Below, piece after piece: positions 30,937 to 59,155 of a stretch of 64,000 nt of DNA. A program made the translations under genes and the position numbers. This DNA is from Candidatus Latescibacterota bacterium (lineage in GTDB: Bacteria; Latescibacterota; UBA2968; GCA-2709665): NCBI GenBank assembly GCA_965237675.1, contig OZ250150.1, positions 384,001 through 448,000 of the forward strand. The letters run 5' to 3'. The notes under the pieces were generated by a model that ran no database searches, had not been told where the DNA came from, and saw only the letters and a list, made by a program, of their open reading frames with translations. Within the stretch, counting starts at the first letter, position 1. The number at the start of each line of letters is the position of its first letter.

Positions 30937-31025
30937 CAATTCAGTCATAACCGGTAATTGCCAGGCGGTTGGATCTCTGTTGGAGAATCTCGCAAGCGAA
31001 ATAAATGCTGCGTAAAGGAGGAACC

Positions 31026-37744: not shown

Positions 37745-38971
37745 GTGGGTCGATTTCGAACGATATGCCAGAAGTGCGATGCGAAACAACAGGATGCCCG
37801 ACTCTTGAATTGTGGTGTCTGCGGGGGTCCACTGGGGTTTCGATACAGCTATGCCGATGTTGCGTGGGACAACCGCTTCGAAGGTTCCATGTGGCGCTAC
37901 TGGCCCCTTCTACCGGTCGACGGCCCGGACGCGGCCGTCACCCTGGGTGAAGGCGGTACGCCTCTGCTGCACGCACGGAGCTTCGAAGGGCGGCAGGTTC
38001 TTCTGAAGGACGAAACCCGCAATCCCACCGGGTCCCATAAGGACCGTTCTCTCTCGGTCGCGATCACACACGGAAAGTCCATTGGCGCGGATGTTTCCGT
38101 TATTGTGTCAACGGGAAGCGCCGGCATCTCCAACGCCGCCCTCGCAGCACGCGCCGGAATGCGCAGCGTGGTGGTCATGGCCGAGGGAACGCCGCCCGAA
38201 CGGCTCTACCCCATGTTCGGCCTCGGCGCCGTGCTTCTCGAGGTGAGTGCACAGATCGACCCGATCGTGGAAGGGGTTATTGCCGTCTGCCGCAGCCAGG
38301 GACTCTATCTGAGCACCACCAGCCGGAACTCCAATCCGTACCAGTCCGAAGGGAATAAGACCATCGCCTACGAGATCGTGGAGGAACTTGGCAGGGCGCC
38401 GGACTGGGTGGTGGTTCCCGTGGGTGGCGGCGGTACGGTTTCGGGTGTCTGGCGGGGGTTCCGGGATTGCCACGCGCTTGGGCTTATTGACTCTCTTCCA
38501 AGGATGATTGGCGTGGTTCCTCGTGACTACAACGCGCTGGAGGTGGCCTTCGAACGCGGGCTGGAACAATGGAAAGAGGTACTGGCGCTGCCCTATGACA
38601 ACCCGCCGCCCTCAATTCTTGTGAAGCTTGCCCACAGCTATCCCCCCGACGGAATGGAAGCCCTCCGGACCCTACGTGCGTCGAGGGGAAATTTCATTTC
38701 CGTCACGGACGAGGAGGCCCTGACGGCCCAGGAATTTTGCGGGCGGCAGGAAGGGCTGTTCGTGGAGCCGTCCACCGGTGCCTGCCTGGCCGGCACAGCC
38801 CGGCTGTTGGATTCGGGACGTGTGGATCCAGGGGATCTCGTGGTTGCCGTCGTGAGCGGTTCCGGGTATCGCGAGACTGCCTGCACCATGGCCTCGCGCC
38901 CCCTGAAGAAGCAGGCAATATCGATCGAGGAACTGTCCGGCACCCTTGCGGGCTTTGCCGGGTCCGGGTGA
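37745..38971 (+). CDS. threonine synthase-like PLP-dependent enzyme (fold type II)
   Basis: N-terminal CxxC...CxxC; SMWRY; LGEGGTPL; NPTGSHKDR; EGNKTIAYEI; PVGGGG; FVEPS. Confidence 0.85.
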   Translation: MGRFRTICQKCDAKQQDARLLNCGVCGGPLGFRYSYADVAWDNRFEGSMWRYWPLLPVDGPDAAVTLGEGGTPLLHARSFEGRQVLLKDETRNPTGSHKDRSLSVAITHGKSIGADVSVIVSTGSAGISNAALAARAGMRSVVVMAEGTPPERLYPMFGLGAVLLEVSAQIDPIVEGVIAVCRSQGLYLSTTSRNSNPYQSEGNKTIAYEIVEELGRAPDWVVVPVGGGGTVSGVWRGFRDCHALGLIDSLPRMIGVVPRDYNALEVAFERGLEQWKEVLALPYDNPPPSILVKLAHSYPPDGMEALRTLRASRGNFISVTDEEALTAQEFCGRQEGLFVEPSTGACLAGTARLLDSGRVDPGDLVVAVVSGSGYRETACTMASRPLKKQAISIEELSGTLAGFAGSG

Positions 38972-39128: not shown

Positions 39129-39267
39129 ATTCACACACGCTTCCTCAACGGCTCCACAAGCCATTGTGCGGGGTTGAGATGATTGATTCGCGAATAAGGC
39201 AGAAAATCCAATCCACCTGTCCTGCCGGGAAGTGGCGCGGCTCGACTCTGGCCGAGGGACTGAATGC

Positions 39268-40290
39268 ATGTTCATGCATCGTGCGAAATGGCAGCGTAGC
39301 GAGCAGCCGGTTCTGTCTGCCCTGACCACCCGACAGGACTGGTCCCGGGTTGAACTCTACAATCCGACGGTGGTCCGCGTCGAGGACAGGTACATGATGT
39401 GGTACATCGGCAACAGTACCGCCACCCGTACAGACGATACGAAACTGGGCTTTGCCACGTCGGACGACGGGATCCACTGGGACGAGCATCCGGACAACCC
39501 CATCCTGACTGGCGCCCACCTGCCCGCCTGCGACGCCTGGCAGACCCCGCACGTAATATTCGACGCGGACGAGGGCCTGTTCAAGATGTGGTTCATCATG
39601 TCGACCGTCGTGCGGGGCGGGCCAACCTGGCTCATCAGCTTCACTCAACAGTTGGGTTACGCTTCAAGCCGCGACGGTCTGGGATGGGACGTCCATCCCG
39701 AGCCAATTTACCCCAGCGGGCGGCGGCCGTGTGTGATCAAGGACGGTCCGGGCGCCTACCGGATGTGGATGAACTCATCGCCGACGCCCGACGGTAGCTT
39801 CGACGATCTGGTCCGGCACATCTATCGATTCGAATCCACCGACGGCATCGATTGGACGCGGGACCCTGAACCTGTCGTGAGCTTCAACGAGAAGCTCAGG
39901 GGCACGATCTATCCTTTCGTTATGCGGGACGGCGACGGATATATCATGTGGTACGGCGGCTGGCCCGCCGAAGGCGAAGTGGTGATCGACGCGGGTTCCG
40001 ACGCACCCCTGGTTCGCCCCGTGTTCGAAATATACTGTTCGACGTCCGCCGATGGCCTGAATTGGACCCACCACCAGGACACGCCCGCCCTGCCGGCGAC
40101 GCGCAATCCCGTCGACTACGACGGGCGGTATACCTCCACGCCGTGTGTCGTCGACGGCGGGGACCGCTACCTGATGTACTATTCCGCCAGGGACTGGGGT
40201 ACCCTCTATAGAACCGGAGCGGACACGCTGGGCATCGATAAAGCCGGAATCTATCGTCACATCGGCGTGGCCGTGTGCCCCAGGACTTGA
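39268..40290 (+). CDS. five-bladed beta-propeller glycoside-hydrolase-like protein (GH32/GH130/GH43-like), paralog 1
   Basis: Repeats YMMWY.G, ATSDDGIHW, NPIL, S.DG..W; DGRYTSTPCV. Confidence 0.7.
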   Translation: MFMHRAKWQRSEQPVLSALTTRQDWSRVELYNPTVVRVEDRYMMWYIGNSTATRTDDTKLGFATSDDGIHWDEHPDNPILTGAHLPACDAWQTPHVIFDADEGLFKMWFIMSTVVRGGPTWLISFTQQLGYASSRDGLGWDVHPEPIYPSGRRPCVIKDGPGAYRMWMNSSPTPDGSFDDLVRHIYRFESTDGIDWTRDPEPVVSFNEKLRGTIYPFVMRDGDGYIMWYGGWPAEGEVVIDAGSDAPLVRPVFEIYCSTSADGLNWTHHQDTPALPATRNPVDYDGRYTSTPCVVDGGDRYLMYYSARDWGTLYRTGADTLGIDKAGIYRHIGVAVCPRT

Positions 40291-40330: not shown

Positions 40331-42343
40331 GTGGAAGGCTCTCAAGCCCGAAGCCTGCGGAATCGGGCCGACCCACAACAACGCGCGTCTTCGGAGAATC
40401 TTCCTGCGTCTTCACAGGACGGTCTGACGTTGCGGGCTTTCCTGATCGGGCTCGTCCTTTGCGTGTTCCTTGGTGTCGCGCTGACGCACAACCGTATGGT
40501 CGTCCAGGGGCCCTTCATGGGCAGTTACTTTATGGACCGGGGCGTGCTGTTCGTTTTCTTCGTCCTTGTTCTGGCCGTAAACCCTCTGGCGGCGGCCCTG
40601 AAGCGCCGATATGCACTGGGGCGGGGCGAGTTGTTGGCCATCTATGTCATGTTGCTGTTTCTGATGCCGGCATGGAAAATGACCAAGGCCCTGCTGGGCT
40701 TTATGACGGGCGTGACCTACTATGCCTCGCCGGAAATGCGGCACCTGGAAGCGGTGTTGCCCTACGCCCTTCCCTGGCTGTCGATACTGGATACGCATGC
40801 GGTAAGGGGGCTGTACGACGGTCTTCCCGCCGGCGACCCGGTGCCCTGGTTGACGTGGGTGGTTCCCATGTGGAGCTGGGGGTCGTTCCTGGTGGTGTTG
40901 TACGTCGTTCTCGTCTGCCTGGCGGTTCTGATGAGAAAGCAGTGGGAGGAACACGAACGATTTGCGTTTCCCATCATGCAGGTGCCGCTGGAGATGAGCG
41001 AGGCGGGCGCGCGAAAGGTGGGACCCCTGTTCCGCAACAGGATGATGTGGGGGGGATTCGCGGTTCCATTTCTGATCGGATTGTTGAACGGGCTTCAGAG
41101 GTACTACTACTCCCTGCCCCGCATTCCGCTGAGAACGGTGATCTGGATCTTCCGCCGCGCGATTCCCTTGCATATCGGCCTTCATTTTGCGATCCTTGGG
41201 TACTCGTATTTCGTGAATACGGACGTGAGTCTGAGCATCTGGCTGTTCAACGTGATCGCCAAGTGCGTCAGCGGAATTCTGGCCATCGTGGGGGCGGAAA
41301 CATACGGCGTTTCCGGGGTGGTGGGCCGGCACAGTTCCCAGGGATCGGAATTCCTGGCGATGATGGGCATGGGCTACATGCTCGCCCTTGCAGGGTACAG
41401 TCTGTGGATCGCGAGGGGGCACCTGCGGGAAGTGTGGGCCAGGGCGATGGGCCGCCCGTCACGCCTGGACGATTCGGACGAGGTTATCCCCTACCGGTCG
41501 GCCGTGGCGGGCATCGTTGCGGGGACCCTGTATCTGGGATGCTGGCTCTACCAGGCAGGCATCTCTCCCCATCTCGTCCTGCTGCTGGGCTTTTTCTGTT
41601 TTGTCGTCTTTCTGGTTCTTGCCCGAATCGTGAGCGAGACCGGTTATTCGGTTACCTACGCCCCGCTGAACCCCTCGGAGTTCGTGGTGTGTGCGGTCGG
41701 TTCCGCGGCGTTCAGCCCAACTGGCCTCACGACCCTCGGCGTCAGTTTCGCCTGGACGATGACCCGGCTGAATACGCTGATGCCCCGGGCCTCGGGCGCG
41801 CTGAGACTCGCACGGGAGATCGGACGCAAGCGGGGGCTGGTCCTGGCGATGGGCGCCGCGCTGGCGGCGGGCCTTGTCGCGGCGAGCTATACGACGCTTC
41901 AACTGGGATACGAGCACGGCGGCCGCAACCTGGATTATTGGTTCAGGGACGTAAACGATTGCGCGCTGCCGTTCGACGAATACATCGGACGCCGGTTGCT
42001 CTCACCGACTCCGATCTTCTACCCCGGATTTCTTTACACGGCGCTGGGGGCCGCCGTTGTCGTCGTTCTGATGTCGCTCCGGTCGCGGCTCCCGTGGTGG
42101 CCGCTGCACCCGGTGGCGCTGCCGGTGAGTACGATCGCGTATACGCACAATTACTTCTTCAGCGTATTTCTCGCCTGGGGAATCAAGGCGCTCGTGCTGC
42201 GGTATGGAGGGGCCAACCTGTACAGGATGACCAGACCGTTTTTCATGGGAATCATCCTGGGTGAGGCGGTCTGCCTGGGGATGTGGATCGTCATCGACAG
42301 CGTAACCGGGAAAGTGGGCGGGATCTGGATCCTGCAACCCTGA
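40331..42343 (+). CDS. polytopic inner-membrane protein, DUF6785/DUF6784-type putative transporter
   Basis: Many TM helices; GLTLRAFLIG, RKQWEEHERFAFP, RIVSETG, WWPLHPV, PFFMGIILGE. Confidence 0.75.
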   Translation: MEGSQARSLRNRADPQQRASSENLPASSQDGLTLRAFLIGLVLCVFLGVALTHNRMVVQGPFMGSYFMDRGVLFVFFVLVLAVNPLAAALKRRYALGRGELLAIYVMLLFLMPAWKMTKALLGFMTGVTYYASPEMRHLEAVLPYALPWLSILDTHAVRGLYDGLPAGDPVPWLTWVVPMWSWGSFLVVLYVVLVCLAVLMRKQWEEHERFAFPIMQVPLEMSEAGARKVGPLFRNRMMWGGFAVPFLIGLLNGLQRYYYSLPRIPLRTVIWIFRRAIPLHIGLHFAILGYSYFVNTDVSLSIWLFNVIAKCVSGILAIVGAETYGVSGVVGRHSSQGSEFLAMMGMGYMLALAGYSLWIARGHLREVWARAMGRPSRLDDSDEVIPYRSAVAGIVAGTLYLGCWLYQAGISPHLVLLLGFFCFVVFLVLARIVSETGYSVTYAPLNPSEFVVCAVGSAAFSPTGLTTLGVSFAWTMTRLNTLMPRASGALRLAREIGRKRGLVLAMGAALAAGLVAASYTTLQLGYEHGGRNLDYWFRDVNDCALPFDEYIGRRLLSPTPIFYPGFLYTALGAAVVVVLMSLRSRLPWWPLHPVALPVSTIAYTHNYFFSVFLAWGIKALVLRYGGANLYRMTRPFFMGIILGEAVCLGMWIVIDSVTGKVGGIWILQP

Positions 42344-42502: not shown

Positions 42503-43336
42503 ATGGAAGCGGGAACTGAATTGGACGACCAGATGCAAAGCGAACTGAATCAGATGCGCGTCAACGGCTGGTGTGTCGTCAGGAACGTCGTCCACCAGGA
42601 TCGGGTCGCGGCCGTGAGAAAGAGCGTTATGGATGCCGTTCATCGGCACGCGAATGCCGACACTCTCGATGACAAGGGCATCGGCCACGTCTCCGGATTC
42701 GTAGCCCGCGAGCAGTCGTTCGCGCCCTATGTGGCGGATTCCCGGGTCATGGGTGTCGTCAAGGGAATGTTAGGCGACCACGCCCGGATCTCTTTCACGA
42801 CGGCGACGGTGAATTTCCCCGGAAACCCGCGCGGCGTGTGGCACGCCGACTGGCCCTTCAACCAGAACAACGCCGGGCATATCACGGCACCTTATCCCGA
42901 TGTGGTGATGCACCTCACCACGCTATGGATGCTCTCCCCCTTCAGTGCGGAAAACGGCGGAACGCTCATTCTCCCCGGCAGCCACCGTTCGAATAACAAT
43001 CCAAGCGGGGAGAACGGATTCGATCCGCTCGGCACGATTCCCGGGGAGTGCAACGCGGAAGGCGACGCGGGAAGCGTGCTGATGCTGGACAGCCGGCTCT
43101 GGCATGCCACGGCGCCGAACCGCTCCGACGCGCCGCGTGTGTCGGTCGTCATTCGCTATGCGCCCTGGTGGCTCAATACCGATGTCCTGATGCCCGGGTC
43201 CGAGGAGCGGGCCCGGATGTTGGAAGCAACCGGGCTGAAGGCGCCCGAGGTCCCGCCCGTTCCCCGGGACGTCTACGATACCATGCCCGAGCGGGTGAAG
43301 CCCCTCTTCCGTCACTGGGTAAGAGCAGAGAACTGA
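42503..43336 (+). CDS. phytanoyl-CoA dioxygenase (PhyH) family Fe/2OG enzyme, canonical HxD
   Basis: WHADWP, GGT...PGSH, DSRLWH, N.S..PR. Confidence 0.9.
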   Translation: MEAGTELDDQMQSELNQMRVNGWCVVRNVVHQDRVAAVRKSVMDAVHRHANADTLDDKGIGHVSGFVAREQSFAPYVADSRVMGVVKGMLGDHARISFTTATVNFPGNPRGVWHADWPFNQNNAGHITAPYPDVVMHLTTLWMLSPFSAENGGTLILPGSHRSNNNPSGENGFDPLGTIPGECNAEGDAGSVLMLDSRLWHATAPNRSDAPRVSVVIRYAPWWLNTDVLMPGSEERARMLEATGLKAPEVPPVPRDVYDTMPERVKPLFRHWVRAEN

Positions 43337-43349
43337 CGAAGACCGGCCA

Positions 43350-43576
43350 GAGGCTCAATGACGTTCGCTGCGTGCGTTGAGCCTGTCGAAACGCCGTCAT
43401 TGAGCTTGTCGAAGTGCCCACGTTTCGCTATCCTTCGAGACCCTTCGCCGACCCTTCGACAGGCTCAGGGAGCGGCTCAGGGTGCAGGCGCGATGGCGGT
43501 TGTGGTGGCGCTGCCTGTGCTGCCCGCACTGTTTACGCTGCCTGTGCTGAGCCTGTCGAAGCAAGCTTGTCGAAAC
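43350..43576. repeat. REP-like repeat cluster (TGAGCCTGTCGAA / TTCGACAGGCTCAG)
   Basis: Several direct and inverted units; same family as 4745, 25260 and 56994. Confidence 0.8.
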
Positions 43577-43605: not shown

Positions 43606-44559
43606 ATGGGAGAGACAGCAACAAAAACCAGGTATACCGCGCCGAATCCCGGATTCGGGTTCTCGGACGTGGCGCAGGCCGAACCCGAATATCCATTCCC
43701 GGCCCTGACGCTGGAACAGCGGATGCGGTTCGAGCTTTTCGGGTATACCATTGTGGAGGATCTGTTTACCGAGCAGGAGTTGCAGGCCATAGAAGCGGCA
43801 GCCAGGAGCGCCAGAGCCGAAATTCTGGAAGCAGTAGGCGACAACGAGATAACGCCACCTCCGCCGCCAAAAAAATACGAAGACTTCAGGGACGGGTCGA
43901 TCTGGCGGGCCAATCGAAGGAGGACGGCTTCGGGTGACTTGCACATCGAACGTCTGGAAATTGAGAACGTGCTGGGGCTGGACCCCATTTACCTGTCCGT
44001 GCTGACCAAACCGCGCGTCCTGGGGGTCGCGACCGAACTGCTGGGCGGGACCTTCCGGTTCCACCAGGTCGCCGTCCGCTTCAACCGGCGCTCCGAAACG
44101 CCCGTCCTGGGATGGCATGGCGGGGTGACCCGGCACAAAGACCGTGCGGTGTGCAAGAACGGGTGGTTCCATACGCAAATCCTCGGCTTGATTCTCTACC
44201 TCACGGACGTGTGGCCCGGTGACGGCGGTACCGGGATCTTTGCGGGAAGTCACAGACTCGACCTTTCCTATGACGACCTGAAGCAGTACATCACAGATCA
44301 TCCGGATTCCGAGTTCTTCCACCAGACCACGGCGAAGCGGGGGTCGGCTCTGCTGTTCGCCGACGGGCCCCTCATGCACCGGACCATCAACATCGAAACG
44401 GATAAGGAAAGGCTCATCATGCTCTCGCGGCTGGTCCATTCAGACTACGAGTTCGGCCGCATGGAGTCGCTCGGGCGGACCGACCACGTACCGCATGAGC
44501 TTATGCCGCTTTTCTACGGCCGGGCGTTTACGCCGAGATATCGACCCCGAGGGGAATAA
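43606..44559 (+). CDS. PhyH-family Fe/2OG enzyme with HGG motif (candidate halogenase), paralog 1
   Basis: GWHGG (His codon 44116), YLTDV..GDGGT...GSH, LMHRT, ER; GGAGG RBS. Confidence 0.8.
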   Translation: MGETATKTRYTAPNPGFGFSDVAQAEPEYPFPALTLEQRMRFELFGYTIVEDLFTEQELQAIEAAARSARAEILEAVGDNEITPPPPPKKYEDFRDGSIWRANRRRTASGDLHIERLEIENVLGLDPIYLSVLTKPRVLGVATELLGGTFRFHQVAVRFNRRSETPVLGWHGGVTRHKDRAVCKNGWFHTQILGLILYLTDVWPGDGGTGIFAGSHRLDLSYDDLKQYITDHPDSEFFHQTTAKRGSALLFADGPLMHRTINIETDKERLIMLSRLVHSDYEFGRMESLGRTDHVPHELMPLFYGRAFTPRYRPRGE

Positions 44560-44577
44560 CACACGGAGGTAATACTG

Positions 44578-45855
44578 GTGGCAGCGAGTGTTCTCGAAGG
44601 GCCGAAGTGGTATTTGCCCCGAATCTGTGGGATCAATCCGACCGGTCCGCGGATTTCAGTCAAGGCCGGAGGCGCTGTGGACCTGCGCCTCGAGGTGGAG
44701 CCCTGTCAATGCCTCCCGACAGGCCAGGTCTGGCGGCGTCAGTCCGAGCCCATCCTGTCGGCCGCGACGACCCGTCAGGACTGGTGCCGCGTGCTCCTCT
44801 ACATGCCCTGCGTGCTGAGACTGGACGGCATCTACAAGATGTGGTACGTGGGCAGTTCCGACCACGCTCGCGGTCCTTCGTACATCCACCTCGGGTACGC
44901 CGTGTCGAGTGATGGATTGAACTGGGAGGCATATCCCGACAATCCGATCGTGACCGACCAGGCGATACCCTGGGGCTGGCGTTTCCAGTCGCCCTGCGTG
45001 CTTTACGATCTGCAGGATAAGATCTACAAGATGTGGTTTACGGCGGTGGATGAGAGCGACCGGGAGGGCAGTCCGTGGTTGAACCAGCGGGTGGGATACG
45101 GCGAAAGTCCGGACGGGATATCGTGGACGTTCCGTGAGAAGCCGGTGTTGCGCACGGGGCGGCGTCCATACGTGATGAAACAGGATGGTGGGACGTACAG
45201 AATGTGGGTTAACGCCCCGTCTGCGGACACCCCGGGTTTGCAGATGACCGAAAACATCGTTTCCGCCCGTTCCGAGGACGGCCTGCATTGGAAAACGGAA
45301 GGAGACGCGGTCCGGTACGGCGGGATCTATCGCTCCTGCGTTTATCCTTTCGTCATGCGCGACCGGGGCGAACTGGCGATGTGGTTCGGCGGTCACCGGG
45401 CGGGCGGCGCTTTCGATATTTCGTTCGGACGCACGCACGACGGCAGCACCTGGTACTACCAGAACGACGTGCCGATTTTTCCGTCGAACCCGCGCAGGGA
45501 AGCGTTTGACGGCCGGTACACGTCCACACCGCACGTGTTGAAGCTGCCGGGCAGATACCTGATGTACTATTCCGCGCGGGACCTGGACGACGGCTGGTTC
45601 GCGCCCGACGGCTCGCGTCAGCACGACAGCGCGGGGGTGTATCGCCACATCGGGTGCGCCGAATTACCCGTCGACGAAATAGAAGATCCCGGACTCCGGT
45701 TTTCGTGGACATCGGACGGCAGGACGATGCCCGGAAACGGCAGTTCTTTGCGGTTTGAGGCAGACAGGGCGGGCAGACATTCGGTCACCTGCCGCGTGGA
45801 GAATTCCAACGGTTCCGCGGCTTACACATGGGAAATGGATGCAGAAGATGGATAG
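44578..45855 (+). CDS. beta-propeller glycoside-hydrolase-like protein (paralog 2) inserted in a PKD/Ig-like domain
   Basis: Shares WxRxxxP(I/V)LSAxTTRQDW, GRRP, DGRYTSTP, YLMYYSARD, AG(V/I)YRHIG with 39268; extra beta-rich N- and C-terminal segments. Confidence 0.7.
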   Translation: MAASVLEGPKWYLPRICGINPTGPRISVKAGGAVDLRLEVEPCQCLPTGQVWRRQSEPILSAATTRQDWCRVLLYMPCVLRLDGIYKMWYVGSSDHARGPSYIHLGYAVSSDGLNWEAYPDNPIVTDQAIPWGWRFQSPCVLYDLQDKIYKMWFTAVDESDREGSPWLNQRVGYGESPDGISWTFREKPVLRTGRRPYVMKQDGGTYRMWVNAPSADTPGLQMTENIVSARSEDGLHWKTEGDAVRYGGIYRSCVYPFVMRDRGELAMWFGGHRAGGAFDISFGRTHDGSTWYYQNDVPIFPSNPRREAFDGRYTSTPHVLKLPGRYLMYYSARDLDDGWFAPDGSRQHDSAGVYRHIGCAELPVDEIEDPGLRFSWTSDGRTMPGNGSSLRFEADRAGRHSVTCRVENSNGSAAYTWEMDAEDG

Positions 45856-47722
45856 ACACGTAATCCTGGCTGCGGGCCGCCGCGCACGATGCGCGGTGGA
45901 GGTGCCCGCGAAACCGGAACCCGGCGAAAAGACGGCCGGGGAAGAACTCGCTCGCTACCTGGGTAAGCTGGCCGGCGTTCCAATCGGCCTTCTTCAGGGC
46001 GAGAAAAGCCGCGCACCCGTAAGGATCCTGGTGGGGTCCAGAGCCAGGGAGGTGGTGGACGACCTGCCGCTGGATGCGGTTCGGGATGACGGGTTTGTGC
46101 TGCGGGTCTCGCCGGACCGGATTGCCTTGGCCGGCGCCAACGCCCGGGGCACGCTGTACGCCGCGTATGAACTGATCGAGCGGTTGGGGGTGCGGTGGTA
46201 CGGGCCGGGTCCGGAGGGTGAGTATGTGCCGGCGGCGGGGGACATGGTGATTCCCGAGGGTGTGGCGGTGATCAACCCGTCCTTCCGGTTCCGATTCCTG
46301 CGTGCCATCTTTGCCGCGATGGTCGGGCTGGGCAAGTCGGGAATGTGGCAGCCCTTTTCGCCGCCCCGGAAGGAGCAGCTGCTGGACTGGGGCGTGAAGA
46401 ACCGGCTGAACGCGGGTTTCTGGCCATTTGACGATCCGGACGTCACCACGTTCTTCGCCCGGCGCGGCGGCGTGGCGTGTGTGGACCACGCTCACGCCCT
46501 TCCTTACATGATCCCGCCTGGCCAATACTGGGAGTCGCACCCGGAATACTTCGCCGTCGACGAACAAGGCGAGTTGTTCGAGAGGCGGGCGAACGAGTAC
46601 GGGATACACGTGTGCACGTCAAATCCCGATGTCCTGGACCTGGTGGTCCGGAAGGCCCTCGAGACGATGGAACGCGACCCGGATGCGGGCTTCGTGAGCA
46701 TTACCCAGGCGGACGGCCAGTTCCATTGCCGGTGCCCGGCCTGCCTGTCGAAGTGCAACCAGGGATCTCTGGTATTTCTGGGCGACGAGCAGATCATCCG
46801 GACCGATTGTACGGTGGACTTCGCCAACCGGGTGGCGGAACGGTTCTGCGAGCGATGGCCGGGCCGGAACCTGATGATCCTGGGTCATCATCAGACGATT
46901 CCGCCGCCGACGATTGCCGTGCACCCGAACGTGATGGTCAAGCTGGCCTGTTCGCCGCACGGGTTCGTGTCGTTCAACCGGCCCCTCGAGGATCCCGCGG
47001 GGAACCACTTTATCTTCCAGAGGGCCGTGGAGGGATGGGCCGCCACGGGTACGCCGCTGGCGTATTACGGTTATAACCCCCACAGTTCGTTTGCCCACGC
47101 CCCCTTTTCGGCGGGCCGGAGGTTTCACAGCGATATCAGATGGCTGCACCGGCACGGCTTCGTGGGCGCCGAGTTTCAGGGTGAGGGTACGCTCTGGGGG
47201 TTCTACGGGCTCAATCACGTGATCCAGGCCCGCACATTGTGGGACATCGACGTGGATTTCGACCGTCTTCAGGAGGACTACTTCCGCTGTCTGTTCGGTG
47301 CCGCGGCCGAACCCGTGAAGGCGCTGCACGAGGCGTTCGAGCGGGCGGTGGTGGAACACGAACCCATGATGAAGGGCCTCGGCGCCTTCCTTTCGCCGGA
47401 GGTGATCGCCAGGGGAAGAGATCTGATTCGCGAGGGTCGCGACGCGGAAACGTCTGATGACGTCCAGGGCCGCCTGAACGTCCTGGCCGCCCAGGTTGAA
47501 TATGGGGACCGGCTGATGGGCGCCAGACGAACCGCGGAGACGTACCACCTGACGCGGGAACGGGACCATTTGAAGCGGCTGGTCCGCGAACGGGACGCGA
47601 TTGTAAGCTACATCGAAGCGAATCCCGTGGACGGCGCCTATCACCTGGGCGGCATCGGAGGGCAACGAGGGAATATAAACGGGTTCCTGCTGGGCCATCT
47701 GTGGGGAATCGACAAGATTTAA
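45848..47722 (+). CDS. DUF4838-domain protein (GH67/GH20-like N-domain plus TIM barrel)
   Basis: DGFVL, RGTLYAAYELIERLGVRWY, HPEYFA, CTSNP, D...CRCPAC. Confidence 0.78.
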   Translation: MDRHVILAAGRRARCAVEVPAKPEPGEKTAGEELARYLGKLAGVPIGLLQGEKSRAPVRILVGSRAREVVDDLPLDAVRDDGFVLRVSPDRIALAGANARGTLYAAYELIERLGVRWYGPGPEGEYVPAAGDMVIPEGVAVINPSFRFRFLRAIFAAMVGLGKSGMWQPFSPPRKEQLLDWGVKNRLNAGFWPFDDPDVTTFFARRGGVACVDHAHALPYMIPPGQYWESHPEYFAVDEQGELFERRANEYGIHVCTSNPDVLDLVVRKALETMERDPDAGFVSITQADGQFHCRCPACLSKCNQGSLVFLGDEQIIRTDCTVDFANRVAERFCERWPGRNLMILGHHQTIPPPTIAVHPNVMVKLACSPHGFVSFNRPLEDPAGNHFIFQRAVEGWAATGTPLAYYGYNPHSSFAHAPFSAGRRFHSDIRWLHRHGFVGAEFQGEGTLWGFYGLNHVIQARTLWDIDVDFDRLQEDYFRCLFGAAAEPVKALHEAFERAVVEHEPMMKGLGAFLSPEVIARGRDLIREGRDAETSDDVQGRLNVLAAQVEYGDRLMGARRTAETYHLTRERDHLKRLVRERDAIVSYIEANPVDGAYHLGGIGGQRGNINGFLLGHLWGIDKI

Positions 47723-47940
47723 CCATGATTCGTCGTTTTTCGGGGACGTTAAATCGTATATATGCAAGTTAATAAAGGCGATTAAACTGCGGATTACCAG
47801 GATACACCAGGTCACTGGATGTGAACGAAAAAAATGTCCTTATGAACGACCTCAATACCCCGTTTTGCACCGGTACCTTCTGTGCCTTTTGTGCTTTTTG
47901 TGGCCAATTTGACTGTTGTCTTTTTTCGAATTGAGGTTAA
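47719..47940. mobile_element. MITE-like element (family A), copy 2
   Basis: TTAACCATGATTCG ... CGAATTGAGGTTAA; internal GAACGACCTCAATACCCCGTTT and CCTTCTGTGCCTTTTGTGCTTTTTGTGGCCAATTT shared with 2058-2433. Confidence 0.72.
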
Positions 47941-47979
47941 GCAGCCTGGCGCGGCTTCGCATCCCTCAACCGCAACCGA

Positions 47980-48306
47980 TCATGTGCCGCCTGCCAGCCG
48001 CGCACTCACAAGCCGGTTCACGCTCACGCCCTGTTCCGCCGCTTCGATAACCAGGGCACGGTGTGATTCCGGCGGCAAACGCACCAGGAATTTACCGCTA
48101 TAGGTTCGGTCGGCCAATGGCACCGGTACGGGTTCGCCGGCGGCGCGCATGTCGCCTACACACTCCCGTACCAGCCGCTGAATGCCGGACAGTGCCTCGT
48201 CGGGTGACGGCGCCAGCCAGCTCAGCGATGGGAATTCCGCGCAAAGACCCACATGTTCTTTGTCTTCGGCGGACCACGTGATGCGGTAGGTGTAATGGTC
48301 AGTCAT
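47980..48306 (-). CDS. hicB: HicB-family antitoxin
   Basis: HYTYRITWSAED.EHVGLCAEFPSLSWLA; YSGKFLVRLPPESHRAL..EAAEQGVSVNRL. Confidence 0.88.
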   Translation of the reverse strand: MTDHYTYRITWSAEDKEHVGLCAEFPSLSWLAPSPDEALSGIQRLVRECVGDMRAAGEPVPVPLADRTYSGKFLVRLPPESHRALVIEAAEQGVSVNRLVSARLAGGT

Positions 48307-48551
48307 TCTGTCGCTTCCATTTTCTCGATTGCCTTGATCGCCTGGCGGACTTGATATGCCTTCGCCATGCCCTTGTCATTCTGTATGTTCACGCGTGGAT
48401 CGCCTGGCCACGGCGTTCGGTAAACCCGATGACTGGTGCCCTTCTGGCGCGGTTCCCCGAAATAGGCGTCACAAATCCTGGCAAGATCCGCAAATCGAAC
48501 TCCCGTGGGATTGTAGCGTAGTGCTTTGAGGATTTCCGCCGCGCTTGCCAT
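48303..48551 (-). CDS. hicA: HicA-family toxin
   Basis: NPTGVRFADL..IC..YFGEPRQ.GTSH.VY.TPWPGDPRVNIQ..G.AKAYQVRQ; ATGA overlap with hicB. Confidence 0.85.
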   Translation of the reverse strand: MASAAEILKALRYNPTGVRFADLARICDAYFGEPRQKGTSHRVYRTPWPGDPRVNIQNDKGMAKAYQVRQAIKAIEKMEATE

Positions 48552-48556
48552 GAAAT

Positions 48557-48585
48557 ATGGTATCAATAATGATACTATTTGTAAA
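48557..48585 (-). promoter_or_regulatory. hicAB promoter with overlapping palindromic operator (leaderless transcript)
   Basis: TTTACA-17-TACCAT ending 5 nt before the ATG; inverted repeat ATGGTATCA-ATAA-TGATACTAT. Confidence 0.65.
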
Positions 48586-48728
48586 GTAGAAACCATTCCG
48601 GTCTGGAACGACGGGCGATGTGGAACCCACTCTCAATCTGCTTAGCGTGACACGAGCGACAACGTCATTAGGCTACGAGCGGTCAAAGGTCGCCTGCGTT
48701 CATTTCCCCCTGCAAAAAAGGTACCTGC

Positions 48729-50546
48729 ATGGAACAACCCATCCTGATTCTTCGTCCGGACAGCGATCCGTCGGAAGGCCTCTGCGCCGAGGTGCTCCGG
48801 TGCGAGGGATTTCCCTGGCTTGAAGAGCGGCCCGCTGGCGAATTCGACGGTGTACCGCCGGGCGTGAGCGTGGTGATTCTGGCTGGCTCGGGCGTCAGCC
48901 GAAACACCGCCGAGCGGCTGGCAGGGGCAGTTTCCGAGGGTGTGTCGCTGATCGCGACGGCGCCTGACCCGGCCCTCGCGGCCGCGTTCGACGTCGCTGT
49001 CTCCATCGCTGTTCCCGACGCTCACCTTTCTGTAGAATCCCTTTATGGCTGGGAGCATGGGGAGGTGCCGCTGCTTTGTCCCGACGATACCGCGCGTCCC
49101 CTTCATGGGGGACAGGAAGTGGCGGCGCTGCGGACGGTTGACGGCGAGCGATGTGGATCGGGAATCGTATCCGCCCGTCTGGGTGAAGGTACGGCCTGGA
49201 TCTACGGATATGACCTCTGCCGAACCGTGGCCACGCTGCGTCACGGCACGGGAGACGTGCGCGAAAGGCCGGCGAAGGATATGGGCCCGCTCACGGGGCC
49301 CCGGCATATCTACGGTTTCTTCGACCTTTCCGACAAGCTGCCCCGGGACGTGCCGGTATGCGACCTTCACCAGGATATTCTCCGGACGCTTGTCCTGTCC
49401 GCGCTCTCCGATACCGTTCTTCCACGACTGTGGCACTTTCCGGACGGCGCCCCGGCGCTCTGGTTCGTAAAAGGGGACGGATGCGGAGAGTCCGGCGCCG
49501 ACGTTGAGGTGGAAGTCGTGGAGGAATACGGCGCCTATCTGACCTTCAACCGGCCGCCCGTGAGCCAGTACAGCGGGGACCTCATGAGAGATTGGCACGA
49601 ACGCGGACACGGCATCACCATAGAAGCGAGCCTGGACGACGTCACCCGGCCCACCGTCGAGCACTCGGGCAAGATGGTCAGACGGTCCCGGACCGCGGAG
49701 GACCTGAACGAAAACGCACTGCCCGATATTCGCGCCAACCTCGAGGCGCATCGTGACAGCTTTGTACGCGACACCGGCCTGGATATGGACACGATTTGCA
49801 TCCACGGATGCCAGTGGTCGGGGCATCCGATGGCGGAGATGGTCGTCGACCTGGGCTGGTATACACCCACCCATTTCATCTCGCACGATCCGCGCATGCG
49901 CCACGATGAGCGCTACGGGCCTTATATGATCTCCACCGCCCTGCCCCTCCGCTACTTCCAGCACGGCGTGGGGGTTCTCGACCTGTGGCATATGCCGGCG
50001 CAGTGGGACGAGAGTCAGACGCTTGGGGAACGGGATCCCGCGGATCCCAAATCGACGGGCAGGGTGGGCCTCTCGGCGGAGGCGTACGGCGAGGAACTCA
50101 CCCGGTTCGCCGAAGACGCGGCGCGGCGCTGGCACGGCTGCCAGATCGCCAATTTCCACCCGAGCTACGTCGCAATGCCCCAGGACCATCCCCGGGCGTC
50201 CCGCCTGGCGCTGGAAATAGGTCTCGAGGGCGCCCGGTCGGCGGGATGCCGGTTCGAGAACCAGGAGCGGTGGTCCCGGTTCTCCAGGGCCCGGGCGGAC
50301 GTGCGGCTTGTGGATCGGTGGAATGAGGGCGGGGCCGTTTTTCTGAAGATGGTCTCCCCCGGGGATCTGCATGGGCTCACGCTGCTGCTGCCCGACCCCG
50401 TTACCGGGGTCCGCGCCGCCGAGACGGGCGAGGTTCTGGAAGTGCGGGAGGCTGAGCTGGAGGGACAGAAACAGCGTTGTGTACATCTCGATCTCCTGTC
50501 GGGCACGCCGCGGACACTACGGTTGGCTCACGCGGAAACGGAGTGA
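48729..50546 (+). CDS. hypothetical protein, possible polysaccharide-deacetylase-like barrel with N-terminal GATase-like domain
   Basis: PRLWHFPDG..A, KGDGC, DWHERGH, NFHP; long ORF in operon orientation. Confidence 0.55.
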   Translation: MEQPILILRPDSDPSEGLCAEVLRCEGFPWLEERPAGEFDGVPPGVSVVILAGSGVSRNTAERLAGAVSEGVSLIATAPDPALAAAFDVAVSIAVPDAHLSVESLYGWEHGEVPLLCPDDTARPLHGGQEVAALRTVDGERCGSGIVSARLGEGTAWIYGYDLCRTVATLRHGTGDVRERPAKDMGPLTGPRHIYGFFDLSDKLPRDVPVCDLHQDILRTLVLSALSDTVLPRLWHFPDGAPALWFVKGDGCGESGADVEVEVVEEYGAYLTFNRPPVSQYSGDLMRDWHERGHGITIEASLDDVTRPTVEHSGKMVRRSRTAEDLNENALPDIRANLEAHRDSFVRDTGLDMDTICIHGCQWSGHPMAEMVVDLGWYTPTHFISHDPRMRHDERYGPYMISTALPLRYFQHGVGVLDLWHMPAQWDESQTLGERDPADPKSTGRVGLSAEAYGEELTRFAEDAARRWHGCQIANFHPSYVAMPQDHPRASRLALEIGLEGARSAGCRFENQERWSRFSRARADVRLVDRWNEGGAVFLKMVSPGDLHGLTLLLPDPVTGVRAAETGEVLEVREAELEGQKQRCVHLDLLSGTPRTLRLAHAETE

Positions 50547-50713
50547 AGGGTTCCGGCGTCGGGGCCGGCCCGCAGCGCTGGATCGTCGCGAAACCGACGT
50601 CCCGGAGGATGCGGTCTCTCCTTGAGTCCTCCCCTTCCGGACAGCAGGCCGATGCGGCGCCCGGATATAATGCATCCGAACCCCGTGGAGTGATCGACCA
50701 AAAGGAGAATCCG

Positions 50714-51682
50714 ATGAACAGTCAGATGTGGGACCCCGTGCAGGAAGAGGTACGTCGAAAGCTCGGCGCCATCGTCTTCTCGGATCATCCATACCAAATG
50801 GGAGACCAGGACTTTCCATTTCCGGCCCTGACCCTGGAGGAAAGACTCCGGTTCGAGTTGTCCGGCTATACGATCGTGGACGATCTGTTTACCGAAGGTG
50901 AGCTTGGATCGATCGAGGCCGCGGCGAATACGGCCAGGGAAGAAATCCTCGCGTCCCTGGGCGACCGCCCGTTTCACCGCCCGCCTCCCCCGAAGAAATA
51001 CAACGACTTCAAAGAGGGCTCGATCTGGTGGGGGCATCGGACGGTATCGGAGTCGGGCGAACTTTATCTCCACCGCTTGATCATCGAGAGCGTGCTTGGA
51101 CTGGACCCGGCTTTTCTGACCGTCCTGTCGAAGCCTCGCTTACAGGGAATTGCCACTGAATTGCTCGGCGGGACATTCCGATTCCTGTCGCTCGCCGTGC
51201 GCTACAACCGGCGTTCCGACTATCCCGATCTCGGCTGGCATGGCGGCGTTGGCCGGTTCAAGGACCGGGTGGCTTACAAGAACGGCTGGTTCCACACGCC
51301 CATTCTCGGGATGATCCTCTTCCTCACGGACATCGGGCCGGAAGACGGCGGAACGGGGTTCTTCGCCGGAAGCCACCATCTGGACCTGCCCTACGATACA
51401 ATGAAACAGTACATAACGGACTGTCCGGATTCGGAATTTTTCCACCAGGTCGAGGGCAGGCGCGGTTCGACGCTTTTTTTTGCCGATGGTCCCCTGATGC
51501 ACCGGACCATCCCGATTCAAAGCGATAGGGAACGCCTCATCATGCTCTCGCGCCTGGTCCATTCGGACTATGAAATCGGTCAGACGGAGCCGACCGGCAG
51601 CGTTGAGCACGTGCCATCCGATCTCATGCCGATGTTCTACGGACGCGCCTTCATGCCGAGGTATCGACCCGCCGGGCGATAG
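50714..51682 (+). CDS. PhyH-family Fe/2OG enzyme with HGG motif (candidate halogenase), paralog 2
   Basis: GWHGG (His codon 51239), FLTDIGPEDGGT..FAGSH, LMHRT, ERLIMLSRLVHSDYE shared with 43606; AGGAG RBS. Confidence 0.8.
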   Translation: MNSQMWDPVQEEVRRKLGAIVFSDHPYQMGDQDFPFPALTLEERLRFELSGYTIVDDLFTEGELGSIEAAANTAREEILASLGDRPFHRPPPPKKYNDFKEGSIWWGHRTVSESGELYLHRLIIESVLGLDPAFLTVLSKPRLQGIATELLGGTFRFLSLAVRYNRRSDYPDLGWHGGVGRFKDRVAYKNGWFHTPILGMILFLTDIGPEDGGTGFFAGSHHLDLPYDTMKQYITDCPDSEFFHQVEGRRGSTLFFADGPLMHRTIPIQSDRERLIMLSRLVHSDYEIGQTEPTGSVEHVPSDLMPMFYGRAFMPRYRPAGR

Positions 51683-51818
51683 TTTCGATTGCGGCAGATA
51701 AAACCGGCTTTCCGGCGTGGTTTGCGGTCGGACCGCCGTTCCCTGCGTACCAAACCGCACAGGACTCGAGAACGTAGCGTCGAGGCATTTCACCCGATCC
51801 GGGTTACGGGGAAGATGG

Positions 51819-53834
51819 ATGAAACGGACGATTCGCAGGACAGCGTTGTTGAATCTGGAGAAGGTGAGTTATTCGCGCGACCACGTGGCGCGGGTCAGCC
51901 GAGAGGGGTTTACGGATATCGGCGTATCCCTGAAGACAGGCGTAAGAAAATTCACCGGCCAGGGATTCGACTCGGAACAGGTGTGTCAATTTGGCGCGTG
52001 GGCCGAGGAATTCGGCCTGGGGATGACCGTTTTCACCGGATATATGAAGTACCGGGAGACTTTCCTGCGGGACCATCCGGAACGGGCTATGGTGTGCGTC
52101 GGCGGCTCGGGGACCTCCCTGGACAGCGACAACCTCGTGCGAACGAAGTGGCTGTGCCCGTTTCAGCCGGAGAACAAGGCGGAATACCTCGATCTCTTGA
52201 GGAAAGTAATCGGGCTGCCGGCACTGCGGGAGATCCATCTGAACGACGAGGCCGCCATCGGATTCGCGAACGGCGACATCGGTTGCTACTGCGACTATTG
52301 CGTTTCTGAATACCAACGGAAATACGGGACACCGCCCCCTGCCGACTTCGACTGGGAATCGGAGGCGTGGTGGGCGTGGGTACAGCGCAGAATGGCGCGG
52401 TGGACCGAGGTCCATGCCTGGTTCCGCGCGCAAATCAAAAAAGAGCGCCCCGACGTCATGGTTGGCATTCAATATTCGCCGGTGGTCGTGTCCTTTAACG
52501 ACAATATCTGGCGTGCGGGGATCGATCTCTCGCAGGACGCCTTGGCTCAGGACGTGCTGTGTACGGATCCCTATCACCATAACCATACTTCGCATTTCAC
52601 CTACCGGCCCGCGCGTAGGATCCTGACCGAGGCGACCCGGACACTCGCCGGCGCCACGGTCGGGCGTTCGATGAATATATATCCGCAGGCATTCAGACCG
52701 CCCCTGGGCGGTCCGGAACTGACCCGCCGCGACGGATTCATGGCCGGCGCCGTTCCCTACGCGCTCGGCGCGGACAATATCACGCCGTATTCCAATGATC
52801 TGGCCCGTATCATTCCCGGTTTTCTGGACGGGTTCCACGAGGCGGGGAAACTCATTCCCTATTTCGAGAAGACAAAACCCTATGCGTACGCCACCGTAGT
52901 CAACCCCACTCAGACGGAAATATACGGGAATCCGGAAACCGGTTGGGGCCGGAAAGCGCTGGCGATCTGGCCCGACGTCATGAACCAGGTCGGGATTCCG
53001 TGGCGCTGGGTTTTCGACGGTCGCCTCGCGGACGCCGGGGAGGCGCTGCAAGGGCCGTCGATCCTGCCGGATACACACTGCCTGACCGGCGAGCAAAGGG
53101 CGGTACTGCAGGCGCGTGCCGGATCGGGCGCCGGCCTGCTTTGGGTGGGAAGGACACCGCGCACGGATTGGCCTGGAAATGGACCCTGTCCGCCGCCGGA
53201 AGGCGAAACCACCGACAGCGCGGAGATGCGGCCCGTCCAACGGGAACACCCCTTTCTGGAGGGCATTTCACTTCCTGTAATGCTGCAGTCGGCGTATTCC
53301 GAGCCGGGCATCGCTGGGGAGACGGTCGGTGAAGTCGACGGGAAGCCGGCACTGGTCGTGAACGAGGAAAACGGCGGGCGGCAGGTCTGGCTGGCGGGGG
53401 TTCCGGAGTTCAGCTACGTGACCCCCGGAGACCACGGTGGTGTCCGGACGCCCACGGACGGGATACCGCTTCTGCGGAATATTCTGAAATGGCTGGCGAA
53501 AGATGAGCCGGTTGCCCGCCTCTGGCCCTATCCGCCGGAGAACGCGTACCGGGACCTGCGGCCGTGGGACCGCCGCGACGTGCCGACCATGGAATTGTTT
53601 CCGATGATCGGCGACGGCTGCCTGGTCTGTCTGATCTTCAACTACGTGGGACTGGAGTACCGGACGAATCTGGTGATGCGTGCGCCGGAAGGCGCGGAAA
53701 TCGCGTCGCTGACTGACGTCTTCACGGGAACCGACGAACTTCCCGCCTCACACGTTCGCGGGCGGGAGGTTGTGATGCCCGTCAGGATGTCGAATCAGAC
53801 CGATTTTCTGGCGGTGGAAATGACGTGGCGATAG
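51819..53834 (+). CDS. putative glycoside hydrolase (GH42-like), paralog 2
   Basis: Near-colinear with 23224-25239 (MKRTIRRTA, WLCPFQP, LPALREIHLNDEA, RPWDRRDVPTMELFPM). Confidence 0.6.
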   Translation: MKRTIRRTALLNLEKVSYSRDHVARVSREGFTDIGVSLKTGVRKFTGQGFDSEQVCQFGAWAEEFGLGMTVFTGYMKYRETFLRDHPERAMVCVGGSGTSLDSDNLVRTKWLCPFQPENKAEYLDLLRKVIGLPALREIHLNDEAAIGFANGDIGCYCDYCVSEYQRKYGTPPPADFDWESEAWWAWVQRRMARWTEVHAWFRAQIKKERPDVMVGIQYSPVVVSFNDNIWRAGIDLSQDALAQDVLCTDPYHHNHTSHFTYRPARRILTEATRTLAGATVGRSMNIYPQAFRPPLGGPELTRRDGFMAGAVPYALGADNITPYSNDLARIIPGFLDGFHEAGKLIPYFEKTKPYAYATVVNPTQTEIYGNPETGWGRKALAIWPDVMNQVGIPWRWVFDGRLADAGEALQGPSILPDTHCLTGEQRAVLQARAGSGAGLLWVGRTPRTDWPGNGPCPPPEGETTDSAEMRPVQREHPFLEGISLPVMLQSAYSEPGIAGETVGEVDGKPALVVNEENGGRQVWLAGVPEFSYVTPGDHGGVRTPTDGIPLLRNILKWLAKDEPVARLWPYPPENAYRDLRPWDRRDVPTMELFPMIGDGCLVCLIFNYVGLEYRTNLVMRAPEGAEIASLTDVFTGTDELPASHVRGREVVMPVRMSNQTDFLAVEMTWR

Positions 53835-53920: not shown

Positions 53921-55024
53921 GTGATCGAGGTCGTTGACAGTGGCATCCTTTCCCGGCAGCCGGGACGCGGGGCGTACATGCCGACCATCACCCCGCTGTC
54001 TGACGGGAGCATGATCGCCTGCCAGCACATGGGCGCGGAACTGGGTTCCCAGGACAACCATATCGAAGTCCTTCGCTCCAACGACGGGGCCGCGACATGG
54101 GTGAACGAGGGCAGCATCCACGGTGGCGGACCCCCGGATGATGGATGGACCTACAGGAGTCCCCACGTCAGCGAAGCGCCCGGCAACCGGCTGGTGATGA
54201 CCGCGACGCGTTTCGAAATGCGGTCCGGCAAGCTGTTCGATCCGAACTCGGAGGTGCTGCAGCGACCGGAGATGCTGCTGTTCTGGTCGGATGACGCGGG
54301 GCGCACCTGGTCGGCGCCCCAGGTCGTCCACGTGGACCTGCCTCCCGAGAAATACACGTGCAATGGCGCCGGCGTGCTTCTTCAGCTCGCTCCCGACCGG
54401 TGGATGTATCCCCTGGAGACCTGGAAGCCGGAGGGGTACGCGGGGCCGCCCGACCAGAAGGCGGCGGCGGTGTTTTCGGCGGACCAGGGGCGAAGCTGGG
54501 GGGCGTTTACCGTTGTGGCCGACGACCCTTCGGGGGCATTGCTCTGGTGGGACCAGATGTGTGCGGTGCTGCCGGACGGCAGAATCTATACGATGCTCTG
54601 GACGCACCGTTACGGGACCTCGGAGGACCTGCACAACCACTGGACCGTCTCCGAAGACGGCGGGCGGACGTGGTCGGCGCCACGGCCCACCAACCTGCGC
54701 GGGCAGGTCTGCGCCCCCATCGCCCTGGCCGACGGACGGGTGGCCGCCATCTACAACTTCCGGCACGATCCACAGGGTATCCGCGTGGCCCTCAGCGACG
54801 ACCTGGAAAGTTTCGACCTTTGCAGCGAGGTCGTGGTGTTCGACGCGGGGGCCGAGGCAACCCTCGGAGAGCCGGAGACGGACAATTTTCTGGCCGAACA
54901 TATGCAGATCGCTTTCGGCAAGCCGGGCGGAATCCGCCTCGCCGACGGGGATCTGATGACGTATTTCTGGTGTACGGTCGGAGGCGTCACCCACACGCGC
55001 TGGGCACGGCTCCGGGTGAACTAG
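53921..55024 (+). CDS. sialidase-family / BNR(Asp-box) repeat protein
   Basis: Asp boxes SNDGAATW, SDDAGRTW, SADQGRSW, SEDGGRTW. Confidence 0.82.
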   Translation: MIEVVDSGILSRQPGRGAYMPTITPLSDGSMIACQHMGAELGSQDNHIEVLRSNDGAATWVNEGSIHGGGPPDDGWTYRSPHVSEAPGNRLVMTATRFEMRSGKLFDPNSEVLQRPEMLLFWSDDAGRTWSAPQVVHVDLPPEKYTCNGAGVLLQLAPDRWMYPLETWKPEGYAGPPDQKAAAVFSADQGRSWGAFTVVADDPSGALLWWDQMCAVLPDGRIYTMLWTHRYGTSEDLHNHWTVSEDGGRTWSAPRPTNLRGQVCAPIALADGRVAAIYNFRHDPQGIRVALSDDLESFDLCSEVVVFDAGAEATLGEPETDNFLAEHMQIAFGKPGGIRLADGDLMTYFWCTVGGVTHTRWARLRVN

Positions 55025-59104: not shown

Positions 59105-59155
59105 GGAAGAATCCTGTCAGCATTGACTCAGAGCACTCGTAGAAAGGGGACGGTT

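Follow-up and report, generated by a model that had tools for sequence, protein, structure and literature searches.

Two PhyH-fold paralogs with an H-G-G motif

We examined a pair of paralogous genes, here called HGG_A and HGG_B, in a 64,000-nucleotide stretch of a Candidatus Latescibacterota genome (contig OZ250150.1, positions 384,001 to 448,000); this whole stretch is referred to below as the window. Both genes are predicted to encode Fe(II)/2-oxoglutarate (2OG) enzymes of the PhyH fold in which the H-x-D/E...H facial triad is altered: H-G-G stands in place of H-x-D, and both histidines are kept. The original prediction, made from the letters of the window, had been that these proteins are radical halogenases or non-canonical oxygenases within a catabolic rather than a biosynthetic locus. 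The two genes, the PhyH-family gene next to HGG_A and the codons of the residues discussed here are as follows, in window coordinates.

43606-44559, + strand: HGG_A (P0001), 317 amino acids, GWHGGVTR; PhyH-fold Fe(II)/2OG enzyme assigned to a HygX-like clade
50714-51682, + strand: HGG_B (P0002), 322 amino acids, GWHGGVGR; paralog of HGG_A
42503-43336, + strand: canonical PhyH-family oxygenase P0003, 277 amino acids, WHAD...H...R; PF05721, E 5e-20, directly 5' of HGG_A
44116-44118, 44122-44124, 44377-44379 and 44410-44412, + strand: codons of H171, G173, H258 and R269 of HGG_A
51239-51241, 51245-51247, 51500-51502 and 51533-51535, + strand: codons of H176, G178, H263 and R274 of HGG_B
44362-44364, + strand: codon of Asp253 of HGG_A, the proposed relocated carboxylate ligand; the codon of Asp258 of HGG_B lies at 51485-51487

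HGG_A and HGG_B are 67% identical across 300 residues. Both exceed the gathering cut-off of 22 bits for the Pfam family PhyH (PF05721), with 36.9 bits for HGG_A and 31.1 bits for HGG_B, and the canonical protein P0003 scores higher than either (73 bits). The WHGG of HGG_A aligns to the WHAD of P0003 (BLASTP) and to the wHsD of the ectoine hydroxylase 4mhr (HMMER), and a six-frame scan found WHGG in the window only within the two HGG reading frames. The pair of H-G-G paralogs and the canonical motif of their neighbor were found as the original prediction had described them. The distal histidine (in LMHRT), a threonine at His+2 and an arginine at His+11 are kept in both proteins. In HGG_A the residues in question are H171-G172-G173, F251-A-D253-G-P-L-M-H258, T260 and R269, with G194 at the position of HygX Lys137; in HGG_B they are H176-G-G178, F-A-D258-G-P-L-M-H263, T265 and R274, with G199. 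We built two alignments, A1 with 73 sequences (12 close-family members and 61 more complete relatives) and A2 with 13 close-family members. H171, H258 and R269 are invariant in 73/73 sequences of A1, which bears out the retention of the first histidine, the distal histidine and the 2OG arginine, and both histidines, the threonine at His+2 (T260) and the 2OG arginine are invariant in 13/13 members of A2. The roles of R269 and T260 in binding the C5-carboxylate of 2OG are assigned by homology.

The start codon of HGG_A is supported by the homologue P0004, which starts at the same place. Inspected by eye, the N-termini of HGG_A and HGG_B carry no hydrophobic signal segment, which fits cytoplasmic enzymes needing 2OG. 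The spacer between the P0003 gene and HGG_A is filled by a repeat (43366-43576) of palindromic TGAGCCTGTCGAA / TTCGACAGGCTCA units with perfect inverted arms of 15 nucleotides. The repeat has 8 matches in the window at no more than one mismatch, against 0.08 expected; the matches outside this spacer lie at 4761, 25304, 57011 and 57055, apparently all of them intergenic. It looks like an element of the repetitive extragenic palindromic or miniature inverted-repeat transposable (REP/MITE) type, and its presence explains a spurious 5' extension of the HGG_A open reading frame (ORF) to 43414.

HygX and the loop before the distal histidine

We searched the PDB with the A1 profile and considered the best 60 of its 79 matches. 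The best match was HygX (4xcb, 4xc9) with an E-value of 1.7e-39; other matches included EctD (1.2e-23), human PhyH (6.6e-21), PHYHD1 (2opw; 1.3e-11), the halogenases SyrB2 (4.5e-11, rank 24) and CytC3 (4.2e-6), and both TlxJ and TlxI, two chains of PDB 7vbq. No entry named WelO5 or BesD was among these 60. The A2 profile matched five PDB sequences at E<=10, namely two of HygX (best E 5e-4), two of EctD and GriE, with no halogenase among them, and a single-sequence search with P0001 recovered EctD only (E 0.025). An AlphaFold2 model of P0001 built on A1 (predicted local distance difference test, pLDDT, 90.4; predicted template modelling score, pTM, 0.88) has the double-stranded beta-helix fold. 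In a Foldseek search of the PDB with this model the top six matches were HygX chains (E 2.6e-15 to 1e-14, template modelling scores of 0.63-0.69 on the target); there were at least 500 matches at E<=0.001, and among the matches listed all were 2OG oxygenases of the double-stranded beta-helix fold. HygX is the closest solved relative by sequence and fold alike. We conclude from the profiles and the model that HGG_A and HGG_B belong to a HygX-like subclade of PhyH, in which HygX is the sole solved member. The canonical enzymes PhyH (2A1X), EctD (4MHR/3EMR) and GriE (5NCH) share the Pfam family, the fold, the distal histidine and the 2OG arginine with HGG_A and HGG_B, but carry H-x-D/E where these have H-G-G.

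A 2026 review describes the iron site of HygX as "H-X-G E-X3-H", in which the acid is relocated, its old position is glycine and the gap is filled by Lys137; it also reports that HygX turns hygromycin C into hygromycin B in vitro by orthoester formation (PMC13374393). HGG_A and HGG_B resemble HygX (PDB 4XC9/4XCA/4XCB/4ZPI) in combining H-G-G with an acid in the loop before the distal histidine and a His...Thr/Ser...Arg arrangement for 2OG. In the HMMER alignment the family wHGG falls on LHGG of HygX and the family "fadGplmh" on "LNE-ALMH". The two differ in that the acid of HygX is Glu at His-4, whereas the HGG proteins use a loop extended by one residue (D-G-P) with Asp at His-5, and in that Lys137 is replaced by glycine. 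This position is Gly194 in HGG_A and Gly199 in HGG_B, glycine in 13/13 members of the close family, and lysine in 59/117 aligned rows.

The loop F-A-D-G-P-[L/V]-M-H precedes the distal histidine in 13/13 close-family members, and D253, G254 and P255 are invariant in 13/13 sequences of A2. We compared A2 by hhalign with A3, an alignment of 58 relatives from which P0069, P0132 and P0139 (Gly, Glu and Asp in the acid column) had been left out; F-A-D-G-P-l-M-H was matched to F-x-E-(gap)-a-l-i-H with 100% probability and an E-value of 1.8e-47. The glutamate is invariant in 58/58 sequences of A3, which is partly a product of that selection. MAFFT also puts D253 in the glutamate column of the relatives. 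All three methods, MAFFT, HMMER and hhalign, assign Asp253, and equally Asp258 of HGG_B, to the HygX-type Glu-ligand column and insert one residue behind the aspartate. In the DSSP secondary structure assignment of the P0001 model, strands 248-252 and 258-261 are joined by residues 253-257, which are not in a strand; this fits a ligand-bearing loop but is no proof of one. On the strength of these alignments we regard Asp253 and Asp258 as putative iron ligands. The original prediction had instead suggested the aspartate of a KDR motif (D179) as a substitute ligand. This residue is conserved in the close family only and not in the wider H-x-G clade, which makes it a weaker candidate than D253; the block that holds it (171-180) has a pLDDT of 75, the lowest confidence of the core in the AlphaFold2 model.

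Searching 5.8 billion proteins through a word index yielded 17 matches, and GWHGGV[S/T/G]R together with FADGP[L/V]MHRT is present in 11/11 full-length homologues retrieved in this way; the recurrence of GWHGGV in every one of them indicates that the motif did not arise by chance. A phmmer search over 1.84 billion cluster representatives returned 143 matches at E<=0.001, with one full-length cluster above 50% identity and the others at 20-38%. From the ESM Atlas we obtained no more than generic PhyH clusters, which came from Gemmatimonadota and Poribacteria. We counted the motifs in a MAFFT alignment of 126 sequences of 200-450 amino acids (from 161); 13 rows are incomplete or misaligned at one of the two histidine columns, and the remaining 113 could be assessed:

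H-x-G with an acid at His-4: 71/113 rows
H-x-G with an acid at His-5 only: 13/113 rows, exactly the close family
H-x-G without an acid: 11/113 rows
Another non-acidic residue (S, A, N, Q, H, C or P) at first His+2, with an acid at His-4: 12/113 rows
H-x-D/E: 6/113 rows, P0003 and five relatives

Eight of the 11 H-x-G rows without an acid look truncated or misaligned; in the other three the acid column is occupied by Gln, Gly or His. When the close family and P0003 are set aside, the acid at His-4 is found in 86 of 99 relatives. These counts indicate that the loss of the H-x-D carboxylate is a clade-wide trait, and that it is accompanied by conservation of an acid in the loop preceding the distal histidine.

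We also computed a tree from 92 rows with a quick IQ-TREE search under LG+G4 and placed its root on the H-x-D protein P0003; rows outside 250-400 amino acids were excluded, as were 19 that were truncated or misaligned. The close family forms a single clade with a Shimodaira-Hasegawa-like approximate likelihood-ratio support of 100, nested among H-x-G/E-x3-H relatives, and this nesting indicates that the D-G-P loop is derived from an E-x3-H ancestor. Within the close family an A-type and a B-type subclade are separated, with one gene of the window in each; HGG_B falls in the B-type subclade with P0013, P0010, P0008 and P0007.

The surrounding locus and its counterparts in other genomes

The genes around HGG_A and HGG_B in the window are as follows.

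31005-34094, + strand: TonB-dependent receptor (CarboxypepD_reg + Plug), head of a same-strand gene run
37745-38971, + strand: pyridoxal-phosphate-dependent (PLP) enzyme, a relative of threonine synthase that does not reach the equivalog cut-offs; the conserved block starts with this gene
39232-40290, + strand: GH130/GH32-like beta-propeller with weak similarity to mannoside phosphorylases
40331-42343, + strand: polytopic membrane protein DUF6785 + DUF6784 (E 4.6e-109), presumed importer
44578-45855, + strand: second GH130-like propeller, starting 18 bp 3' of HGG_A
45755-47722, + strand: DUF4838 protein whose N-terminal domain resembles those of GH67/GH20
47980-48306, - strand: HicB-family antitoxin gene, opposite in strand, midway through the glycan locus
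48303-48596, - strand: ORF of 97 amino acids overlapping the HicB gene, no Pfam match, possible toxin partner
48729-50546, + strand: conserved 605-amino-acid protein, no family match, upstream of HGG_B
51717-53834, + strand: conserved protein of ~700 amino acids, no family match, downstream of HGG_B
53921-55024, + strand: BNR-repeat (sialidase-fold) protein, last gene of the block

A GntR regulator and the TonB-dependent receptor precede the conserved run in the window, and no intergenic gap between 37 and 56 kb reaches 430 bp. The DUF6785 + DUF6784 protein probably acts in transport; a literature search for DUF6785 found nothing, and a search for polysaccharide utilization with 2-oxoglutarate dioxygenase or phytanoyl-CoA gave no such report among the matches listed. 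No carrier (PP-binding), nonribosomal peptide synthetase or polyketide synthase domain was detected in the 42 window ORFs scanned. Judged from these genes, the locus is one of carrier-free glycan uptake and catabolism, in agreement with the catabolic setting that had been proposed for the pair.

An insertion-sequence-type DDE transposase gene (DDE_Tnp_1_4; 55261-56871, - strand) comes immediately after the BNR gene, where the conserved block ends. On the other side, between 31005 and 37450, the TonB receptor is followed by a 759-amino-acid protein, the C-terminal end of which is weakly PorZ-like, and then by an outer-membrane protein of the PorV/PorQ family; the PorZ-like and PorV/PorQ proteins are parts related to type IX secretion that adjoin the uptake locus. 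The window also holds two Ldh_2-family genes (1040-2050, - strand; 57157-58236, + strand), several GFO/IDH/MocA oxidoreductases and xylose-isomerase-like TIM barrels, and taken together the 64 kb look like an island for the catabolism of sugars and organic acids.

We scanned 185,579 species genomes with A2 for the close family and obtained 22 loci (L001-L022), distributed as follows.

Candidatus Latescibacterota: 15/22 loci, two of them in one genome
Gemmatimonadota: 3/22 loci
Phycisphaerae or Phycisphaeraceae: 2/22 loci
No taxon label: 2/22 loci

The Gemmatimonadota-labelled metagenome-assembled genomes with loci L007, L008 and L012 carry the same locus at ~90% protein identity to those of Latescibacterota, so that the labels conflict.

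At least 14 related genomes share the locus. One conserved block was recovered by tblastn with the window neighbors in L001-L012 and L015. Its order is PLP enzyme, GH130-like propeller, DUF6785 protein, canonical PhyH, HGG_A and second propeller, followed by DUF4838 (some loci only), HicB (some loci only), the 605-amino-acid protein, HGG_B (some loci only), the ~700-amino-acid protein and BNR. The contig of L006 stops just past HGG_A, and L010 has no BNR match. The canonical PhyH gene lies directly 5' of the HGG_A orthologue in 14/22 loci, L016 included, and a HicB homologue is found at the same place in 9/22. L014 and L020 carry an intact HGG_B orthologue. In L001 (18106-19070) the gene is broken between two reading frames, the copy in L002 (16824-17426) is without residues ~180-294, including the part with the distal histidine, and ten other loci have no copy at the corresponding position. 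HGG_B is dispensable and is being lost in this lineage, although the frameshift in L001 may alternatively be an assembly error.

Around the more distant members (L017-L019, L021 and L022) the neighbors include an Ldh_2-AAT fusion, xylose-isomerase-like TIM barrels, GFO/IDH/MocA oxidoreductases and proteases; no biosynthetic neighbors were found at these five loci. Genes of the Ldh_2 (malate/L-lactate dehydrogenase) family and of the AAT/C45 acyltransferase-peptidase type recur near HGG homologues in neighborhoods that are otherwise different (window 57157-58236 and 59123-60223; L017 10967-13198; L021 18538-19557; L022 12588-13607). In L017 the two are fused and lie directly 3' of the HGG gene. 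This recurrence may hint at a pathway.

Proposed function and alternatives

The explanation that we consider somewhat likelier to be right than wrong, with Asp253 as an iron ligand included, is that HGG_A and HGG_B are HygX-type Fe(II)/2OG oxygenases that act on an imported glycoside and are not halogenases. They would be cytoplasmic enzymes of the HygX-like PhyH branch, in which the carboxylate of the triad has gone from the H-x-D position, now glycine, and is supplied by the loop before the distal histidine. In HygX and most relatives this is the glutamate at His-4; in the close family, with its loop one residue longer, it would be Asp253 or Asp258. Binding of iron and 2OG would be conventional, through H171 and H258, T260 and R269. 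The space vacated beside the iron, occupied by Lys137 in HygX and by glycine here, would probably give room for a bulky or anionic glycoside. We propose that the TonB receptor and the DUF6785 membrane protein import the substrate, an oligosaccharide or sugar derivative, and that the ferryl species hydroxylates or otherwise oxidizes one of its C-H bonds; the attack might, for example, fall beside an ether or glycosidic oxygen and result in cleavage or demethylation. The GH130-like, DUF4838 and BNR proteins would then process the product further. A glycoside substrate would be shared with HygX. Additionally, PhyH-family enzymes are reported to demethylate the 2'-O-methyl ribose of nucleosides by oxidation (PMC12709175). 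These enzymes, PHYHD1/FJS, oxidize a sugar substituent in catabolism and could serve as a model for the role of a PhyH protein in a catabolic sugar locus; their likeness to the HGG proteins is known at the superfamily level.

Several observations weigh against this explanation. HygX is only 16-18% identical to the P0001 model in the Foldseek alignments, and it is a biosynthetic enzyme of Streptomyces, whereas the HGG genes lie in a catabolic glycan locus of Latescibacterota; no biosynthetic genes resembling the antibiotic gene-cluster setting of HygX were found in their neighborhood. The acid of the close family is Asp at His-5 (D-x4-H) and not Glu at His-4 (E-x3-H), and a gapless alignment counted back from the histidine puts Gly254 in the glutamate column. 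An aspartate at His-5 is also present in the canonical H-x-D proteins P0003 and EctD, where, to our knowledge, it is not a ligand. With glycine in place of the HygX lysine, the position that binds halide in halogenases may be empty here. The stem of the close family is long (1.12 substitutions per site), and given this length the function of the family may have shifted. Finally, the distant members at 63-75% identity (L017-L019, L021, L022) lie outside the glycan locus.

Another possibility, less likely but the most serious of the alternatives, is that the HGG proteins are oxygenases with two histidine ligands and no protein carboxylate. Water or a substrate anion (uronate, sulfate or phosphate) would complete the site, and products would be oxidized and not halogenated. 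Such a site would agree with the glycine at His-4 and the replacement of the HygX lysine by glycine, and the family-specific invariant basic residues R176, R180, R259 and R275 would suit an anionic substrate. AspH is described as an active hydroxylase with two histidine ligands only, so that H-x-G need not mean halogenation (PMC10947486); however, AspH is a eukaryotic protein hydroxylase of another family and fold subtype, and the comparison is an analogy only. Removal of the carboxylate usually abolishes activity, as reported for P4H, in which D414A/G are inactive and are not rescued by small molecules (PMC2767507). The placement of the invariant Asp253 in the ligand column by three aligners also speaks for the relocated-carboxylate oxygenase over a two-histidine site. 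There is, in our estimate, a small chance that Asp253 lies off the iron and that, with the lysine gone, an open coordination site binds a halide or a substrate anion, the latter giving a substrate-completed triad.

The proposal that HGG_A and HGG_B are free-standing radical halogenases, in which a halide binds in the room made by the glycine and some small molecule is halogenated at an unactivated carbon by a chloro- or bromo-ferryl species, now appears quite improbable. It has in its favor that H-x-G occurs together with both conserved histidines and the 2OG arginine, that the gap-filling lysine of HygX is absent, and that SyrB2 and CytC3, which have Ala or Gly for the carboxylate as at G173 and G178 here, are detectable in the same superfamily. 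Known halogenases are described as having Gly or Ala at the carboxylate position (PMC10245910), but this substitution alone is reported to be insufficient for halogenation (PMC2767507, PMC10245910). The H-x-G motif is ancestral to the whole clade, the characterized member of which is an oxygenase with a relocated acid, and an invariant aspartate stands in the relocated-acid column of the close family; we know of no relocated acid in SyrB2 or CytC3. Both halogenases match the A1 profile at least 28 orders of magnitude worse than HygX, and both need a carrier-tethered substrate, whereas no carrier gene was seen among the scanned ORFs and the neighborhood is catabolic, without biosynthetic genes. 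The loss of HGG_B in sister genomes also argues against a halogenase. The oxygenase half of the original prediction therefore fits the HygX clade and its relocated acid, and the halogenase half does not.

Least probable of all is that the HGG proteins are non-catalytic or auxiliary subunits pairing with the adjacent canonical PhyH, as TlxI does with TlxJ (the two presumably act as a heterodimer), or decaying duplicates, since the frequent position of a canonical PhyH gene directly 5' of HGG_A, the matching of both 7vbq chains and the broken HGG_B copies of L001 and L002 are set against the invariance of His, His, Thr and Arg, which argues for a working active site, and against the lack of an adjacent canonical PhyH at HGG_B and at the distant homologues (L017-L022).

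The combination of H-x-G with a relocated acid is already known from HygX, so far from this one antibiotic enzyme. What is new is that the combination is widespread among uncharacterized proteins from the environment, that it is found in a conserved locus for glycan catabolism in Latescibacterota, and that it has a D-G-P/Gly194 variant. H-x-G in the PhyH superfamily is by itself no flag for a halogenase, because a large and almost wholly uncharacterized clade combines it with a relocated acid; we found at least 86 clusters at 50% identity with such an acid, and motif mining for halogenases should check the loop before the distal histidine. Were a halide bound at an open site, these would be the first radical halogenases found in a locus for glycan catabolism, here in a phylum that is uncultured. 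If the HGG proteins do oxidize glycans, they would add Fe/2OG chemistry to polysaccharide breakdown and would represent a natural experiment on rearranging an iron ligand set.

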